Assembly: GCA_951406725.2 (NCBI GenBank)
Contig: OX597821.1
Coordinates: 99,324,001-99,388,000 of the forward strand
Origin: Octopus vulgaris
Taxonomy: Eukaryota
DNA: 64,000 nt
Reading direction: 5' to 3'
The notes under the pieces were generated by a model that saw nothing but the letters and a program-made list of their open reading frames with translations, was not told the DNA's origin and did not search any database. The position numbers were made by a program, and so were the translations under genes. Of this stretch, positions 45,001 to 63,697 are shown piece after piece. Within the stretch, counting starts at the first letter, position 1; each line of letters starts with the position of its first letter.

Positions 45001-45912
45001 GTTCTGCCTGACTGGCCCTCATGCCGGTGGCACGTAAAAGCACCCACTACATTCTCGGAGTGGTTGGCATTAGGAAGGGCATCCAGCTGTAGAAACTCTG
45101 CCAGAGCAGATTGGAGCCTTGTGCAGCCATCTGGTTCGCCAGACCTCAGTCAAATTGTCCAACCCATGCTAGCATGGAAAGCGGATGTTGAATGATGATG
45201 ATGATGAATAGTTTTTCTCTACCTTCTATTACATGTGAAACTTCAAATGTTAGTCTATTGTACCCTTGAGATAATTCATTTTCCACCTTTTTTGCTTAAT
45301 ATTTGACATTTCAATGAAGGCTTATAATAGCTGTACTTTGCTTCCTTTTCTTTTCTTTTCACAATCTATATATTCTTATTATTTGAAATATTTATATAAT
45401 ACAGGCAATCGTCATTGAAGCCATTTCTGAAATAAAATCTGAATTGGAGACATGGTAAGTCAGTTTGCTTTCAGATAATATTCTTTTGTGATTTTTCTGA
45501 CATTTCCATCTATTAAGTGATGAGATATTTAGGCACAGCTATTTTGGCGCCACCTATTTAGTTGATTCACTGCTGACTTTGATGTTTTTCTTATTCTCGT
45601 CAGCATCTAGTTATGTTTGTATGTGTTATGTCTCTCTTACCCTCTCTTTCTTTCATTCCCTCTGTATATGTATATTTCCGAGTGGACCTGTGTGTATGTT
45701 TGTGTTTACTTCCAGCACCACAATGCATTGTTACCTAAACAAGCTGAATGCTCACTCAACTGTGCCAAAATATCAGCATCCAATCAGCCAAATCATCTCA
45801 TTCTCTGTATTGTGTGTGTGTGTCATCATCATCGTTTAACGTCTGCTTTCCATGCTAGTATGGGTTAGACGATTTGACTGAGGACTGGCGAACCAGATGA
45901 CTGCACCAGGCT

Positions 45913-45962
<50 letters not shown>

Positions 45963-46595
45963 TACAAAATTAGAGAATGGAGAAACATACTTAAATCAAT
46001 AAAACATCAACTATCAGATGATACCCAATCAATACTTTAATACACCATTACATATCAGTAAAGGCATTATACAAAATATACAGTAAGAGTAAATAGACAA
46101 AGAGATATAAGTATAAAATTTCAAATATAATATGTAATTAAATCAAATCTGACAGCTGTTTTGGCAGTGAGGGCAGTCATACCTCATTTAACCAATAAGC
46201 CATAAAGGCAGGTATAAATGAGGCATTAACAAGGATGCCCCACGGCCTCTTCAGAGAATTAAATTAAATTTGTTATAATTGTGAAAAAGATTATTTAACC
46301 ATATACATATAAATATAAAAATATAAAAATGTAAAATATAAAAACTTATACATCATAATGCTACACTTATATAATATAATACTCATTGGTACAATAATGG
46401 AAGGTAAACAGAACAAAATAAAACAAAATATATATCAGTGTATATATTAATATTAATACACCGATATTATACATATTTGGCTAATAGTTTTTTTAAAAAA
46501 ACTAACACATAGGGAGATGAAAAATAATAATTTAAAACCATGGTTCAGTTCATAAAATTATAAAGCTATAAAAGTTAATAAAAATTGCTATTAAT

Positions 46596-46626
<31 letters not shown>

Positions 46627-47526
46627 GATACAGTTATGTTTGCACCAAGTCCATCCTTGAAAGGATGGACTTGGTGCAAACATAACTGTATGTATTATTA
46701 TTATTATTATTATTAATATTAATAGTAATTTTTATTAACTTTTATAGCTTTATAATTTTATGAACTGAACCATGGTTTTAAATTATTATTTTTCATCTCC
46801 CTATGTGTTAGTTTTTTTAAAAAAACTATTAGCCAAATATGTATAATATCGGTGCTTATTAATATTAATATATACACTGATATATATTTTGTTTTATTTT
46901 GTTCTGTTTACCTTCCATTATTGTACCAATGAGTATTATATTATATAAGTGTAGCATTATGATGTATAAGTTTTTATATTTTACATTTTTATATTTTTAT
47001 ATTTATATGTATATGGTTAAATAATCTTTTTCACAATTATAACAAATTTAATTTAATTCTCTGAAGAGGCCGTGGGGCATCCTTGTTAATGCCTCATTTA
47101 TACCTGCCTTTATGGCTTATTGGTTAAATGAGGTATGACTGCCCTCACTGCCAAAACAGCTGTCAGATTTGATTTAATTACATATTATATTTGAAATTTT
47201 ATACTTATATCTCTTTGTCTATTTACTCTTACTGTATATTTTGTATAATGCCTTTACTGATATGTAATGGTGTATTAAAGTATTGATTGGGTATCATCTG
47301 ATAGTTGATGTTTTATTGATTTAAGTATGTTTCTCCATTCTCTAATTTTGTAGTATTAATTTACGGTAATATTATTACCTTTACCCATATAATACAATAG
47401 ATGAACTGATTGTTTGGCAATTTTTAACATCTATGTATTAGTCTTGTTGGGTACCTATCTAGCAGTATATTGGATATATATTATCCCATGGTGGGTTGAA
47501 TTTTCAACCCCTATCTCATTTTATAA

Positions 47527-47577
<51 letters not shown>

Positions 47578-50500
47578 ATATGTCTGTGTGTCTGTGTTTG
47601 CCATCGCTTGACAACCGATGCTGGTGTGTTTACGTCCCCGTAACTTAGCATTTTGGCAAAAGAAACCAATAGAATAAATGCTAGGCTTACAAAGAATAAG
47701 TCCTGGGGTCCATTTCTTCAACTAAAGGCGGTGCTCCAGCATGGCCGCAGTCTAAATGACTGAAACAAGTGAAAGAGTGCATTCATGCATGCTTGGCAAG
47801 CTTCTCTATAGGCATAGTTGTTTTGTTCAAGAACTTTGCTTCCTGGTCACATGGTTTCAGTTCCTCTGTGTGGAACTGTAGGCAAGAGATTTTTGGTAAA
47901 TGGAAACTGAAAGGAGCTCAGGATGTGTGTGTGTGTGTGTTACTGTCTCCTTATTTTGATACTGCCCGATAGATGTAAATGAGCAACACTGTCAGACAAC
48001 TGGCATCCTTTGTTTCCAATCTTCCATGAAGCATGTCTGGCCGTGGGGAATATATCTTTGCTTGGAAACAGACGAAGGTTGGTGACAGGAAGAGCATCTG
48101 GTTGTAGAAAATCTGCCTTAACAAATTCCATCTGATCCCATGCAAGCATAAAAATGCAGACAATGAAAATAATAGTGATGCTAAATGATTTTGTATAATT
48201 TCAGTATACCAAACATAGAATCACAAGCACTGGAGCATATTCATGCCAAAGAAATAATCATGACATCAGGCTGGTCCAAATCTGTTGAAGCATTTCTTAA
48301 GGTGAGTTTTGAAATTACTTCACTTATATTCTTTCATCACCATTCTCCTCATCGTTGTTGTCATCGTCATCATCACCATCACCCTTGTTCTTTGTTATTT
48401 ATCTTTGTTTTCTTTCTCCCTAAAACTTGTAAAGAAAGCTTCAATGGTTAAGCGGTTAATGTGTTCCCACCTCTCTTATAAATGTTATACCATATTTAAT
48501 GAATAGGCGGCGAGCTGGCAGAAACGTTAGCACGCCGAGCGAAATGCTTAGCAGTATTTCGTCTGTCGCTACGTTCTGAGTTCAAATTCCGCCGAGGTCG
48601 ACTTTGCCTTTCATCCTTTCGGGGTCGATAAATTAAGTACCAGTTACGCACTGGGGTCGATATAATCTACTTAATCCCTTTTTCTGTCCTTGTTTGTCCC
48701 CTCTATGTTTAGCCCCTTGTGGGCAATAAAGAAATATACATATTTAATGAAAGATTCAGGGGCATATTTGATGCACCCCAATTCCAGCAGTGCTTATTCA
48801 GAGAATAAAAGTTTTTTATACATTAACCCTTTGGCATTCATGTTACTCTGTCAAATGTAATGTATATTTATTCATATTGTTTTGAATTACGTGATACTTT
48901 GTAGCTTTGAAATTTTGATGATGCGATTGTCTGTTTTCAAAATGACAATGTAGAGGAGGTGTGTGGAGCCAGGTCTGGCTGCTTTAACCCTTTCGTTACT
49001 GTATTTATTTATTTTACGATGCTCTGTTTTTCTTTCAGTTACTTTAAATGTAACAAAGAATTTAGTAAAATAGCTTTGTTATCATTAAGCTAGTGTTAGG
49101 AACATAAATTGTGACTAAGATTCGGTGGAAGATTTTAATTCAAACTTATGAAAACAAGGCATTTGTACTAATAGCCAGAGCCGGTTTCAGCCAGGTTGGT
49201 AATGAAAGGGTTAAGCATAAAATGTTTAGAATATTTGGGTTAGATATGGCTGGTTTAAATGCTAAAGAGTTAACATAAGTAATATTTAAAGCAATCAAGG
49301 CAATGATCCAGAATTGTTAGTGCACCGGGCAAGATGCTTAGCAGCGTTTTGTCAATCTTTACATTCTGAGTTCAAATGCAGCTGGGATTGACTTTGCCTT
49401 CACCCTTTCAAGGTCGATCAAATAAGTACCAGTTGAGTACTGCGGTTGATGTAATTGACTAGGCCTCTCTCATTAACTTACTGGCCTTGTGCCAAAATTT
49501 GAAACCAATATTTAAAGCAATCTGGTAGTACATTAAAAAACATTACAGAATTTTCTTAGATGTAACAGAAAACATTGCTGTTCATGGCCTGGCTCTCTGT
49601 TGGTTATGAAGATGATTGTTCCAGTTGATTCAGTCAACAGAACAGCCTGCTCATGGAATTTACATGCAAATGACTGAGCACTCTACAGACACGTATTCCC
49701 TTAATGTAGTTTTCAAGGAGATTCAGCGTGACACAGAATGTGATAAAACTGGCCCTTTGAAATATGGGTACAACTCGTTTTTGCCAGCTGAGTGAATTGG
49801 AGCAATGTGAAATAAAGTGTCTTGCTTAAGGACACAATGCACTGCTGGGAATTGAATTCATGACCTTATGATCATTAACTAAATACCCTAGCCACTAAGC
49901 CACTATTATTATGGAGTCAGGTGGGGTAGAAGAGTCCTGGAATAAAATAAGATTATCGTAGTGAGTGTGAGGGAGAAAATTAGCTTATGAGAGGACAAAC
50001 TTCACATATAGGGCTTGGGATGATTTAAAGCACCATTTGAGTGTATTCGTGGCCAGTGCTGCCTGACTGGCTCCCATGCTGGTGGCACATAAAAAGCACT
50101 CGCTACACTCTAGAAATGGTTGGTGTTAGGAAGGGCATCCAGCTGTAGAAACCTTGCCAGGTCAGACTGGAGCCTGGCACATCCTCCTGGCTTGCCAGTC
50201 CTCAGTTGAACTGTTCAATCCATGCCAGCATGCATAAAATTAACTTATGTTTGATTAAAATTAATTTGCTGTTTTTTTTTCTGTGTTTTACATTCCTTGC
50301 AAAACATGGGGCAGATTGTTTGTAAAAGTTTACCTTTCAGTAAAAGTTGGTGCTAAGCTACAAAAGGTTGTGAACCCTTGTACGTGATGTTATTATAGAC
50401 TTATCCCTTTAGCATTCAGATTACTGTTATTGTTCAAATTACTAATGCATTATATTGTAGCTTTAAGATTTTGATGATGTGATCGCTTATTTTTAGAATG

Positions 50501-57934: not shown

Positions 57935-60900
57935 TGTAGATGTATATATGTATGTATATATGCATATATTTTATTTATTTATTTTATATATATATATATA
58001 TATGTATGTAGCAGGCTTCTACCAAAGCCCTGGTTGATCTAGGGGTTTAGTAGTAGAAGACTCTTGGTGAAGGTACCAAGTAGTGGAACTGAACCTAAAA
58101 TCACATGTTTAGGGAGCAAACTTCTTTACCACACAGCCATGCCAGCACCTATTAACAATCCTGAAATTTTGAACTTTAATAGCAATAATTTATCTCAGGC
58201 TGTGAGTCATAACATTGTGCTATTTCTATTGTAGGCTGAAAGCAGTTCAAGGAAGTCACAGTATTGCTCTAGCTGCCAAGTATCATTCTGTACCGGTGAG
58301 TGATATATTTATTCTTACCTTAAATTTAGACTGAAACATGAAGATGACACTCTACAAGTTTGTTGAGATACTGAGTAACAAAACTATGTTAATGCCGTAT
58401 GGTATATAAATTAGCTGTTTTAATACCAATCTGTATGAGACTGTCCCTGGTTCTTTGGTAAATACTTCCAGTTTCAAAGTGACCTAAATTAACACTTTTG
58501 ATACCAACCTGCCTGTGACAAAGTTGTTTTACTAAATTTTGTGTTATTTCCAAACTTAGTTGAAACAAAGACAGTGTATTTCAACAGAAATATGGAACAA
58601 AATGGTTTACCAATTTTATTGATGAGCTAGGTATATTAAATTTCTTCCCATCTGTCTATACCTATTCATTTGTATATATGCATGTATGTTTGTATATGTA
58701 TATATGCTTGTATGGCAGTAAGGGTTGTTTATAATTATCTCATGATGTGACGATAAGGAGTCCACACACACCCCGTATATATATATATATAAAAGGCCTC
58801 TCGCACAGAGTGAAAGGCAGACTGTATGATGCGTGTGTACGAACAGCCATGCTACATGGCAGTGAAACATGGGCCGTGACTGCTGAGGATATGCGTAAGC
58901 TCGCAAGAAATGAAGCCAGTATGCTCCGATGGATGTGTAATGTCAGTACTCATACTCGGCAGAGTGTAAGTACCTTGAGAGAAAAGCTGGACCTAAGAAG
59001 CATCAGTTGTGGTGTGCAAGAGAGACGTTTGCGCTGGTATGGTCATGTGGCGAGAATGGATGAAGATAGTTGTGTGAAAAAGTGCCACACCCTAGCGGTT
59101 GAGGGAACCTGTGGAAGAGGCAGACCCAGGAAAACCTGGGACGAGGTGGTGAAGCACGACCTTCGAACTTTAGGTCTCACTGAGGAAATGACTAGAGACC
59201 GAGACCTCTGGAAGTGTGCTGTGCGCGAGAAGACCCGGCAGGACAAGTGAGTCCATAACCCGTGGCCTTCTACATGGGATGGAGCCAGCCTACGTATGCA
59301 TACCTTCCCTTCTTGGGACACAAAACTCTACTTGTGAAGACCTGTTGAGGCAAGTGAGGATCAGAATCGAAATCGATCAATGGAAATTGCGGATGTGTTA
59401 CCTGTGCCGGTGGCATGTCGTGCCGGTGGCATGTCGAAACTCTACTTGTGAAGACCCGTTGAGGCAAGTGAGGATCAGAATCGAAATCGATCAATGGAAA
59501 TTGCAGATGTGTTACCAGTGCCGGTGGCATGTAAGAGAACCTTCCGTTTTGCGACCGTTGCCAGCACCGCCCCGTTTCGTGTCCGTTGCCAGCCTCGCCT
59601 GGCACATAAAAAGCACCATCCGTTCGTGGCCGTTTGCCAGCTCTGTCTGGCACCTGTGCGGGTGGCACGTGAAAAGCACCCACTACACTCACGGAGTGGT
59701 TGGCGTTAGGAAGGGCATCCAGCCGTAGAAACACTGCCAGATTTGACTGGGCCTGATGAAGCCTTCTGGCTTCACAGACCCCAGTTGACCCGTCCAACCC
59801 ATGCTAGCATGGAAAGCGGACGCTAAACGATGATGATGATGATATATATGGGAGTTAGTGTGTGTGGTCTCCTTTTCTTCACATCATGAGATAGTTATAA
59901 ATGGTTTCACAACCATACAAGCATATATATCATCATCATCATCATCGTTTAGCATCCGTTTTCCATGCTAGCATGGGTTGGACGGTTCAGTTGGGGTCTG
60001 TGAAGCCAGAAGGCTGCATCAGGCCCAGTCTGATCTGGCAGTGTTTCTACAGCTGGATGCCCTTCCTAACGCCAACCACTCCATGAGTGTAGAGGGTGCT
60101 ACGTGCCACCCGCACAGGTGCCAGATGGAGCTGGCAAACGGCCACGGACGGATGGTGCTTTTTACGTGCCACCAGCACGAGGCCAGTCGGGGCGGCGCTG
60201 GCAACGGTCACAAACGGATGGTTCTCTTACGTATAGGAGAAATATGTTACGAAAAGAAAATATAAAATACACGTGGAAATGTAAGGGTAAAATATGAAAA
60301 ATCAACGAAAATGCTTATTGCAAATAGAAAAAGGCTATTTATGACAGGTAGCGACAAATATACACGTTTAGATTGACTGGGGTAGTAATATGAGTCATAA
60401 AGATCATTATTATGAGATGATTGTAAGATGGTAATAAAGTAAGAGAACAAAACGAACCAATGTATATATATATATAAAATATGCATGTACTCATTTACTC
60501 ATTTGACTGTGGCCATGCTGGAGCACTGCCTTTAGTCGAGCAAATCGACCCCAGGACTTATTCTTTGTAAGCCTAGTACTTATTCTATCAGTCTCTTTTG
60601 CCAAACCGCTATGTTACAGGGACGTAAACACACCAGCATCAGTTGTCAAGCGATGTTGGTGGGGGACAAACACAGGCACGCAAACATACACACACATGCA
60701 CACATACATATATATGACGGGCTTCTTTTAGTTTCTGTCTACCAAATCCACTCACAAGGCTTTGGTCGGCCTGAGGCTATAGTAGAAGACACTTGCCCAA
60801 GGTACCACGCAGTGGGACTGAACCCAAAGCCATGTGGTTGGTAAGCAAGCTACTTACCACACAGCCACTCGATCAGCTTCTTTCAGTTTCTCTTAGCCAA

Positions 60901-63131: not shown

Positions 63132-63697
63132 TTGGGTTGTCCGGAAAGTTCGTGCCAATTTTTAAAGGAAAGAAAAAGGTCAATAAATACTTGCCGTTAC
63201 ATTTTTAATCAACCAAATATGAACCATTTTGTATCACAATGCATCTCCATCTTTCCTTTTACTTGAAAATACCCACTTCCCAGAATTGAGGGGGTTTCAT
63301 TGCAAAGAATTCATCAAGGTATCTTTTTACGTCGTCCAAGGAATTGAAATTTTTACCGTTAAGACTATTCTGCGGAGACCTGAATAAGTGGGAATCCGAA
63401 GGAGCAATATCTGGTGAATATGGAGGGTGGGATAACACATCCCAGCCGAGCTGCAGCAATTTTTGTCTGGTTCCCAAAGCATCAAGTGCCGAAAATGAAC
63501 TTTCTTATTTTTCAATTTAAAGGGTTACAGAATTAACACCGGTTATAGGAACATAAATCGTCTTCCAGGAAAAGATAGCTTAAACTGTACTCTAAATGGA
63601 GGTGTAGTCAAATCATATTTTCTGGATTCAACCATGTTCTAAAATAAGTTGAAAGGTAAGCTACTATAAATTGGCATGAACTTTCCGGACAACCCAA
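63132..63697 (-). mobile_element. Internally deleted mariner (Tc1/mariner) DNA transposon
   Basis: ~30 bp TIRs (TTGGGTTGTCCGGAAAGTTCRTGCCAATTT) with TA on both sides. The transposase N-terminus MKNKKVHFRHLML is joined out of frame to the C-terminus LGWDVLSHPPYSPDIAPSDSHLFRS (YSPDLAPSD motif). Confidence 0.93.

Follow-up and report, generated by a model that had tools for sequence, protein, structure and literature searches.

The window, that is, the whole stretch of 64,000 nucleotides of Octopus vulgaris DNA analysed here, carries the gene for eIF2B beta (EIF2B2) on the + strand. Its coding exons lie on both sides of a long palindrome: one ends at 45454 and the next starts at 48205. The best named relative of the exon used as query is an Octopus sinensis protein, at 98% over that exon. 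A preliminary description, made from the letters of this DNA alone, had placed the palindrome within an intron of EIF2B2. This placement holds: the flanking + strand exons are in order and RNA-like contig pieces bound the downstream exon, one piece exactly matching 48204-48301, within a longer contig, in three RNA-like runs. The mapped features are collected in Table 1.

Table 1. Features of the palindromic insertion and of its host intron, in positions of the window
Feature	Positions	Strand	Basis or detail
EIF2B2 host intron, GT..AG, 2750 nt, between the sixth and seventh coding exons found	45455..48204	+	
(TA)n target microsatellite, left half	45915..45961	.	tract mapped in the window
Left arm, an inverted copy of the 3' UTR/pLTR that is truncated at its 5' side and reaches to family end site A	45960..46658	-	family comparison
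Type I hammerhead motif, left arm, antisense to EIF2B2	46137..46268	-	G12A at 46162
Head-to-head junction, 3-nt microhomology CTT (46656-46658) and 2-nt spacer	46656..46660	.	compared by eye with the parent element
Right arm, 5'-truncated copy of the 3' UTR/pLTR, sense to EIF2B2	46656..47355	+	family comparison
Type I hammerhead motif, right arm	47047..47178	+	predicted cleavage after 47164; G12A at 47153
Tail of ~172 nt, from end site A to end site B	47356..47528	+	family comparison
(TA)n target microsatellite, right half	47529..47569	.	tract mapped in the window

The two arms (45960-46658 and 46661-47355) are separated by a 2-nt spacer and are 98.4% complementary in a self-alignment of 45959-47356, in agreement with the coordinates, the spacer and the few differences first described. 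Their mismatches fall in four places, each no more than 200 nt from the palindrome centre: the length of a (TAT)n run (6 nt), C/G at 46621/46692, C/T at 46587/46726, and 2 nt at 46855-46856. Over the outer 499 nt complementarity is perfect. The extension of the right arm by about 170 nt to a (TA)n tract and the (TA)n beside the left arm, both noticed at the outset, are also present.

A genome-wide search with the right arm, in which 40 of 2939 candidates were scored, gave at least 40 near-full matches at 94-100% identity, many of them beside an inverted partial neighbour; the dispersed, (TA)n-flanked copies expected from the preliminary description thus exist. Upstream of such copies lies an ORF composed of a reverse transcriptase (RT), an Asn-rich linker and a C-terminal nuclease. 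A full unit, for example at locus L044, consists of a pseudo-LTR (pLTR), a 947-aa ORF, a 2.6-kb 3' UTR and a second pLTR, 5578 nt per unit, and the insertion in the window is collinear with only the last ~930 nt of it. Partial tandems forming hammerhead-bearing pLTRs are found at four loci (L044, L045, L048 and L049), and the genome contains 39 exact pLTR-to-5' UTR tandem junctions. In these tandem copies the tail continues into the 5' UTR, 138 nt upstream of the ATG. Many RT copies are 97-99% identical, which indicates that the family is young.

The predicted structure of the parent ORF has a mean pLDDT of 76.6 and a folded C-terminal nuclease domain. Its six top Foldseek matches are all telomerase RTs (E 1e-9 to 3e-8); a Pfam search with three pieces of the ORF and a PDB sequence search with the ORF gave no match. 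The nuclease is assigned as a GIY-YIG endonuclease by motif and position (VY-x12-YIG at aa 829-845, with E and N downstream). The frame (L044:3974-6853, - strand) also contains two long low-confidence Asn-rich stretches, at aa 520-642 and 730-818, which resemble the Asn-rich inserts of rotifer Penelope. A Penelope-like origin of the palindrome had been proposed in the preliminary description, together with a partner Penelope-like element (PLE) carrying both RT and GIY-YIG. Both proposals are supported: the arms trace to ORF-bearing copies, the RT model is telomerase-like, the motifs are those of the Hydra clade of PLEs, and RT and a C-terminus of GIY-YIG type, as judged by motif and position, are found in one ORF.

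In the available parts of Craig et al. (2021, PMC8557442), the Hydra clade is defined by an RWK motif, DKT in place of DKG, a CxCX5C linker, the absence of CCHH, and CxxC and CxH around E and N. The parent ORF has RWR at aa 37, DKT at aa 138, CxCX5C at aa 809 and CxxC..E..N..CxH at aa 907, with one C between the GIY and YIG positions and without a CCHH motif. The same set (an RWK-type motif, DKT, CxCX5C, CxxC..E..N..CxH, no CCHH) is found in the clade, including Hydra-1_Obim of Octopus bimaculoides, and the two RTs are collinear as judged by eye from the alignment printed in that paper. Further likenesses to the clade as described there are the (TA)n targets, the hammerhead near the 3' end, the inverted 5'-truncated partner and the one-sided tail. 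By a strict test, 112 of 117 sampled 3' ends of the octopus element adjoin (TA)n; of the other five, four begin with a shorter TA run and one is a tandem junction. Membership in Neptune or Nematis (CX2-5CxxC linker and CCHH) and in Naiad (CX2-5CxxC linker, CCHH and an N-terminal endonuclease) was considered and rejected, as the parent ORF does not show these combinations.

Hydra elements are generally short, less than 3 kb, which is a typical rather than a defining trait (PMC8557442, as far as its available parts go). The octopus unit exceeds this length, at 5.6 kb versus 1.1-3.0 kb for the Hydra elements listed in the supplement, some of which are incomplete. Its 947-aa protein with a long Asn-rich linker and its 2.6-kb 3' UTR are likewise unlike those of the listed families, and its tail of ~172 nt contrasts with the 30-40 nt described for PLEs in the same paper. 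The one octopus Hydra family in the consulted part of that supplement measures 2507 nt and has a different protein, which suggests that the present element is an unlisted family of the clade. On the basis of motifs and the by-eye alignment, the element is placed as a young, protein-coding, 5.6-kb PLE of the Hydra clade. The palindrome is very probably the truncated 3' end of such an element, left as a dead insertion in an intronic (TA)n.

The preliminary description had taken the insertion for a non-autonomous PLE or retrozyme. This part does not stand: the arm is the truncated 3' UTR/pLTR end of a coding element and not a separate family. A self-propagating non-autonomous unit, either a retrozyme or a palindromic MITE-like element, would be in keeping with the absence of an ORF from the insertion and with the hammerhead motif in each arm. 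However, the junction 22-mer occurs only once in the assembly (2.8 Gb), the truncation points vary between loci, ORF-bearing copies have 3' ends collinear with the arm, and the locus has no tandem hammerhead monomers, so that such a unit appears extremely improbable. Non-LTR retrozymes, according to the available part of a recent preprint (bioRxiv 10.64898/2026.07.22.740005), carry a type I hammerhead related to that of PLE pLTRs and consist of head-to-tail tandem units with a hammerhead in each. The octopus locus, in contrast, derives from a coding element by truncation and has a head-to-head arrangement, unlike a retrozyme.

Each arm does contain a hammerhead motif, as the preliminary description had it, but not one of the minimal kind that was supposed. 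The CTGAAGA core starts at 47061 (+) and 46254 (-). The 85 nt between CTGAAGA and GAAAC constitute stem II, and stem III is palindromic and without a loop. Minimal PLE hammerheads have a helix II of 7-8 bp and no helix III (PMC4209133, in its available part), and in the listed Hydra hammerheads stem II takes up roughly 10-25 nt (PMC8557442, likewise), in contrast to 85 nt in octopus. The family hammerhead has the intact type I core, CUGANGA...GAAA...NUH, with stems I-III. Among 10 close sequences, one pair of stem II has changed on both sides and five on one side, a weak indication of covariation. Rfam at E<=1 reported no hammerhead, only 7 low-score matches on (TA)n tracts. A hammerhead with a loopless stem III is expected to fold and work only as a dimer (PMC4209133, available part), and the same is therefore expected of the family hammerhead.

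Both arms at the locus have AAAA in place of GAAA (G12A), and both share a second private change, at 47121. Among exact 23-mers in the genome, 394 have the intact core and 4 have G12A, two of these 4 being the arms of the locus itself. G12A slows hammerhead cleavage by a factor between >500 and about 10^6 (PMC2553840, as far as seen in its available part). By analogy with the ribozymes studied there, G12A would be a catalytically crippling change in both arms. No other copy in the assembly combines both private changes (47121 and G12A) and could thereby be named as the source copy. L148, the sole other locus with the 47121 change, was rejected as the source: it belongs to another subfamily (91.7%) and has an intact core. 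Nor is there support for the idea that selection favours an inactive ribozyme within an essential gene, given that G12 lies within a CpG and that n=1. Hammerhead-like motifs with 49-60 nt between the core halves and a palindromic stem III also occur at L130, L058, L065, L036, L128, L144 and other loci, and several of them sit beside related PLE ORFs. A long stem II seems to be common in these octopus PLE families. Rfam overlooks octopus Hydra-type hammerheads whose stem II measures 49-85 nt, and such motifs are therefore likely to be undercounted.

The layout seen in EIF2B2 is not singular but routine for the family. A survey took the first 100 of the 394 intact-core matches, which fall into 75 loci on contigs C1-C4. 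It required the intact hammerhead 23-mer, and very short insertions therefore escape it. Head-to-head pairs were found at 41 of the 75 loci, 12 of them being near-perfect palindromes. Of the 41 pairs, 40 combine an arm ending at site A with an arm ending at site B, none has two A ends, and one is unresolved. The script had found 40 pairs: 37 are A+B, two (L093 and L109) have an interrupted A arm whose outer piece ends at A, and one (L096) exceeds the fetched DNA. L080, initially removed by an identity filter, is a further near-symmetric A+B pair. Sites A and B are 172 nt apart, and the tail between them is present at one end only in the 40 pairs. The 34 solo loci end at A (27), at B (6) or elsewhere (1), and the genome holds 425 exact junctions of end A with TA. 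Extrapolation from the intact-23-mer sample leads us to expect, genome-wide, ~295 loci with ~160 inverted pairs and ~40 near-perfect palindromes.

Three further properties of the pairs bear on how they arise. First, either arm may be the longer one: of 39 curated pairs, 16 have a longer A arm and 12 a longer B arm, and in the other 11 the starts fall within 20 nt of each other. Second, these 11 symmetric cases are in excess over the numbers seen in 20,000 shuffles (mean 1.5, never more than 7). Third, at family-polymorphic sites the two arms of a pair mismatch at only 7 of 643 (32 pairs, the EIF2B2 locus included), compared to 250.7 expected for independent templates, and the two arms of a pair therefore derive from a single source copy. 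That tight palindromes in particular are homogenised after insertion is not supported, the arms differing at 16/4447 nt in symmetric pairs and 35/12614 nt in asymmetric pairs; shared private changes number 6 and 18, respectively. The junction shows 0-4 nt of microhomology in 23 of the 41 pairs. The 16 of 41 junctions called insertions are an upper bound, because the automated scoring mis-called the EIF2B2 locus and probably others. The literature searched, with most subscription papers and Repbase/Dfam outside its scope, contained no paper in which the A+B partition or the use of one template by both arms is stated, nor an octopus family of this kind.

Some loci met in the survey deserve separate mention. 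Related but diverged PLE families, at L134:1067-5549 and L140:5506-9738, also have inverted ends and a one-sided tail, of ~110 and ~150 nt, respectively; these were the 2 informative loci of 20. L122 holds two near-identical inverted insertions that face in opposite directions ~1 kb apart. L026 and L027 represent one insertion, duplicated ~95 kb apart.

The family data also help to judge whether the palindrome could be a fold-back artefact of reads or assembly, the true allele having only one arm. A run search listed 24 runs, all of them contigs and none recorded as RNA. A comparison of the left flank, left arm and centre with 4 DNA-like runs gave no independent read across the junction, the stretches 45907-45970 and 46577-46700 being skipped. 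Rare variants tend to be lost from contigs, and the absence of the private letter at 46194 from those of the 4 runs therefore says nothing against the copy. Against an artefact, the right arm has a derived change of its own at 46692 (0 vs 58 family copies) and the left arm is derived at 46587 (62 vs 0) and at the 2-nt site (8 vs 0). Moreover, the ends of the left and right arms coincide exactly with sites A and B, respectively, as in 40 other pairs, and the EIF2B2 exons keep their order and strand on both sides. With arm-specific derived changes, ends on family sites and a continuous gene, an artefact is highly improbable.

How, then, could one source copy give rise to two opposed copies with different ends? 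In L1 elements, twin priming is known to produce inversions: both target ends prime on one RNA, and the two resulting pieces do not overlap. In the octopus family, by contrast, the two pieces are copies of one sequence, each made from its own fixed site. A twin-priming step could nevertheless operate as follows. The element endonuclease would cut both strands of (TA)n; of the two target 3' ends, one would prime at site A of the element RNA and the second at site B of the same molecule. Both reverse transcriptases would stop early. In EIF2B2 their stops would almost coincide, perhaps because the RNA was broken there; across the family the two cDNAs would stop independently, or together at a broken RNA end. 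The two cDNA 3' ends would then join head to head, here through the 3-nt microhomology, and host repair would fill in the rest. It has to be assumed that the B-primed cDNA displaces the A-primed one; strand displacement by RTs without RNase H is known. Twin priming, in which each cut end copies one RNA from one of two fixed start sites, is favoured because it would account for the A+B rule, for either arm being longer, for the shared alleles and for the excess of symmetric junctions. We lean slightly towards it.

Biochemical data on another PLE are consistent with parts of this scheme. In vitro, both strands of the target are cut and extended by PAc, the Poseidon element of the lizard Anolis carolinensis (Frangieh et al. 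2024, PMC11167929), whose RT starts at two internal sites that bound the tail. The protein is predicted to form a dimer, and the hammerhead is not needed in vitro. The two strands are alike in their use of the start sites, and the study therefore does not itself show an A/B partition. The main text is silent on how inverted pairs form and on the use of different sites at the two ends. PAc resembles the octopus family in its two tail-bounding RT start sites and its AT-rich target. It differs in belonging to another clade and in having adjacent start sites inside the ORF, whereas the putative octopus start sites lie 172 nt apart, upstream of the ATG.

The preliminary description had suggested fold-back or template switching as the origin of the palindrome. 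The EIF2B2 junction alone, where the arms start within 5 nt of each other, the B arm is slightly longer and 3 nt of microhomology are present, fits fold-back of one cDNA equally well. A stalled cDNA would prime itself into a hairpin, and the endonuclease or the host would trim one strand to A and leave the other at B, in either polarity. Such a process would account for the shared alleles, for the symmetric-junction excess and for the microhomology in EIF2B2, and the available text of PMC8557442 does ascribe the tail to endonuclease resolution of an intermediate. Without trimming, however, fold-back predicts that the long arm always ends at B, while the A arm is longer in 16 of 39 pairs. Zero-spacer palindromes, such as that at L084, leave no loop, and in PMC11167929 the tail ends map to RT start sites and not to cuts. 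The earlier suggestion thus describes a possible event at the EIF2B2 junction, but fold-back alone cannot yield the 16 of 39 pairs in which the short-ended arm is the longer; combined with end processing it is unlikely, though not negligible.

Self-priming on an antisense transcript of the element, which would make a head-to-head hairpin before integration, has been proposed for the palindromic junctions of Penelope in the rotifer Adineta vaga (Arkhipova et al. 2013, PMC3846280, available part). By that account, the rotifer element shares with the octopus family head-to-head palindromic junctions, an optional tail on one pLTR and an Asn-rich linker between RT and endonuclease. It differs in its few copies, short pLTRs, 31-nt tail and the antisense self-priming explanation itself. 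Antisense self-priming alone would account neither for a fixed end on each side, with 172 nt between the two end sites, nor for pairs in which either arm may be longer, and is considered quite improbable for octopus.

Overall, the best explanation of the locus, and one we regard as probable, is a single dead insertion of a Hydra-clade PLE in an intronic (TA)n, with its arms made by twin priming. A broader idea, that PLEs integrate by an obligatory asymmetric twin priming, in which a putative dimer holds one RNA that is copied twice from start sites 172 nt apart, is offered tentatively; it may well be correct, but it is slightly more likely to be too broad. If the idea is true, a single step would account for the inverted partner, for the presence of a tail on one side only and for the surplus of perfect palindromes. 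The available text of PMC8557442 has already given the qualitative picture, in which a truncated copy lies inverted and only one end carries a tail, and names the origin of the inverted repeats and one-sided tails of PLEs as an open question. In the young octopus family, hundreds of clean insertions are available whose two start sites are distant enough to be scored separately, and the A+B rule, the freedom of either arm to be longer and the single template can be put to the in vitro system of PMC11167929 as sharp predictions. The significance rests on the family-wide A+B rule, the EIF2B2 locus being a routine by-product of a known class of elements.

Consequences for RNA may also be considered. 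The EIF2B2 pre-mRNA would form a stem of ~700 bp that would be spliced out with the intron; ~500 nt would separate it from the donor and ~850 nt from the acceptor. The hairpin anticipated in the preliminary description is predicted to be very stable, with a duplex energy of -1086 kcal/mol in addition to the perfect outer 499 nt. A accounts for 530 of the 1394 arm bases. Octopus belongs to an animal group known for heavy A-to-I editing, and the intronic stem is a plausible candidate ADAR substrate; the Dicer substrate and the DNA cruciform envisaged in the preliminary description are likewise hypothetical. The sense hammerhead would not cut the EIF2B2 transcript, because of G12A and of its pairing to the antisense arm. 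Contigs of 4 RNA-like runs contain family sequence with family alleles, not the EIF2B2-intron copy. In these family contigs A>G places number 9, 10, 11 and 14 and G>A places 11, 12, 11 and 8 in the four runs, so A>G changes are not clearly in excess. A single RNA-like family contig, from run X20, has G at the positions corresponding to 47158 and 47176, where 106 of 106 sampled genomic arms have A. These letters possibly reflect A-to-I editing of family transcripts, from a copy other than the EIF2B2 locus, and were read without matched DNA. The extrapolated inverted pairs and near-perfect palindromes of the family are candidate sources of long double-stranded RNA in octopus, and with asymmetric twin priming, if true, octopus Hydra elements would keep supplying introns with long hairpins open to RNA editing.

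The palindrome is not the only source of double-stranded RNA in EIF2B2, because the introns already hold other inverted repeats. A 93-nt inverted pair of a high-copy element (45112-45204 and 45823-45915, 89%) brackets the exon at ~45402-45454; such pairs can promote exon skipping or circles. A second, imperfect palindrome of ~700 nt (83%) lies at 59531-60230 in a later intron, and the window contains many longer-range inverted pairs of dispersed repeats besides the palindromes. Other transposon remnants in EIF2B2 introns include an open frame at 58735-59250 (+), which we take to be related to the C-terminus of an RTE-type LINE, and one at 63259-63504 (-), presumably a fragment of a mariner transposase.
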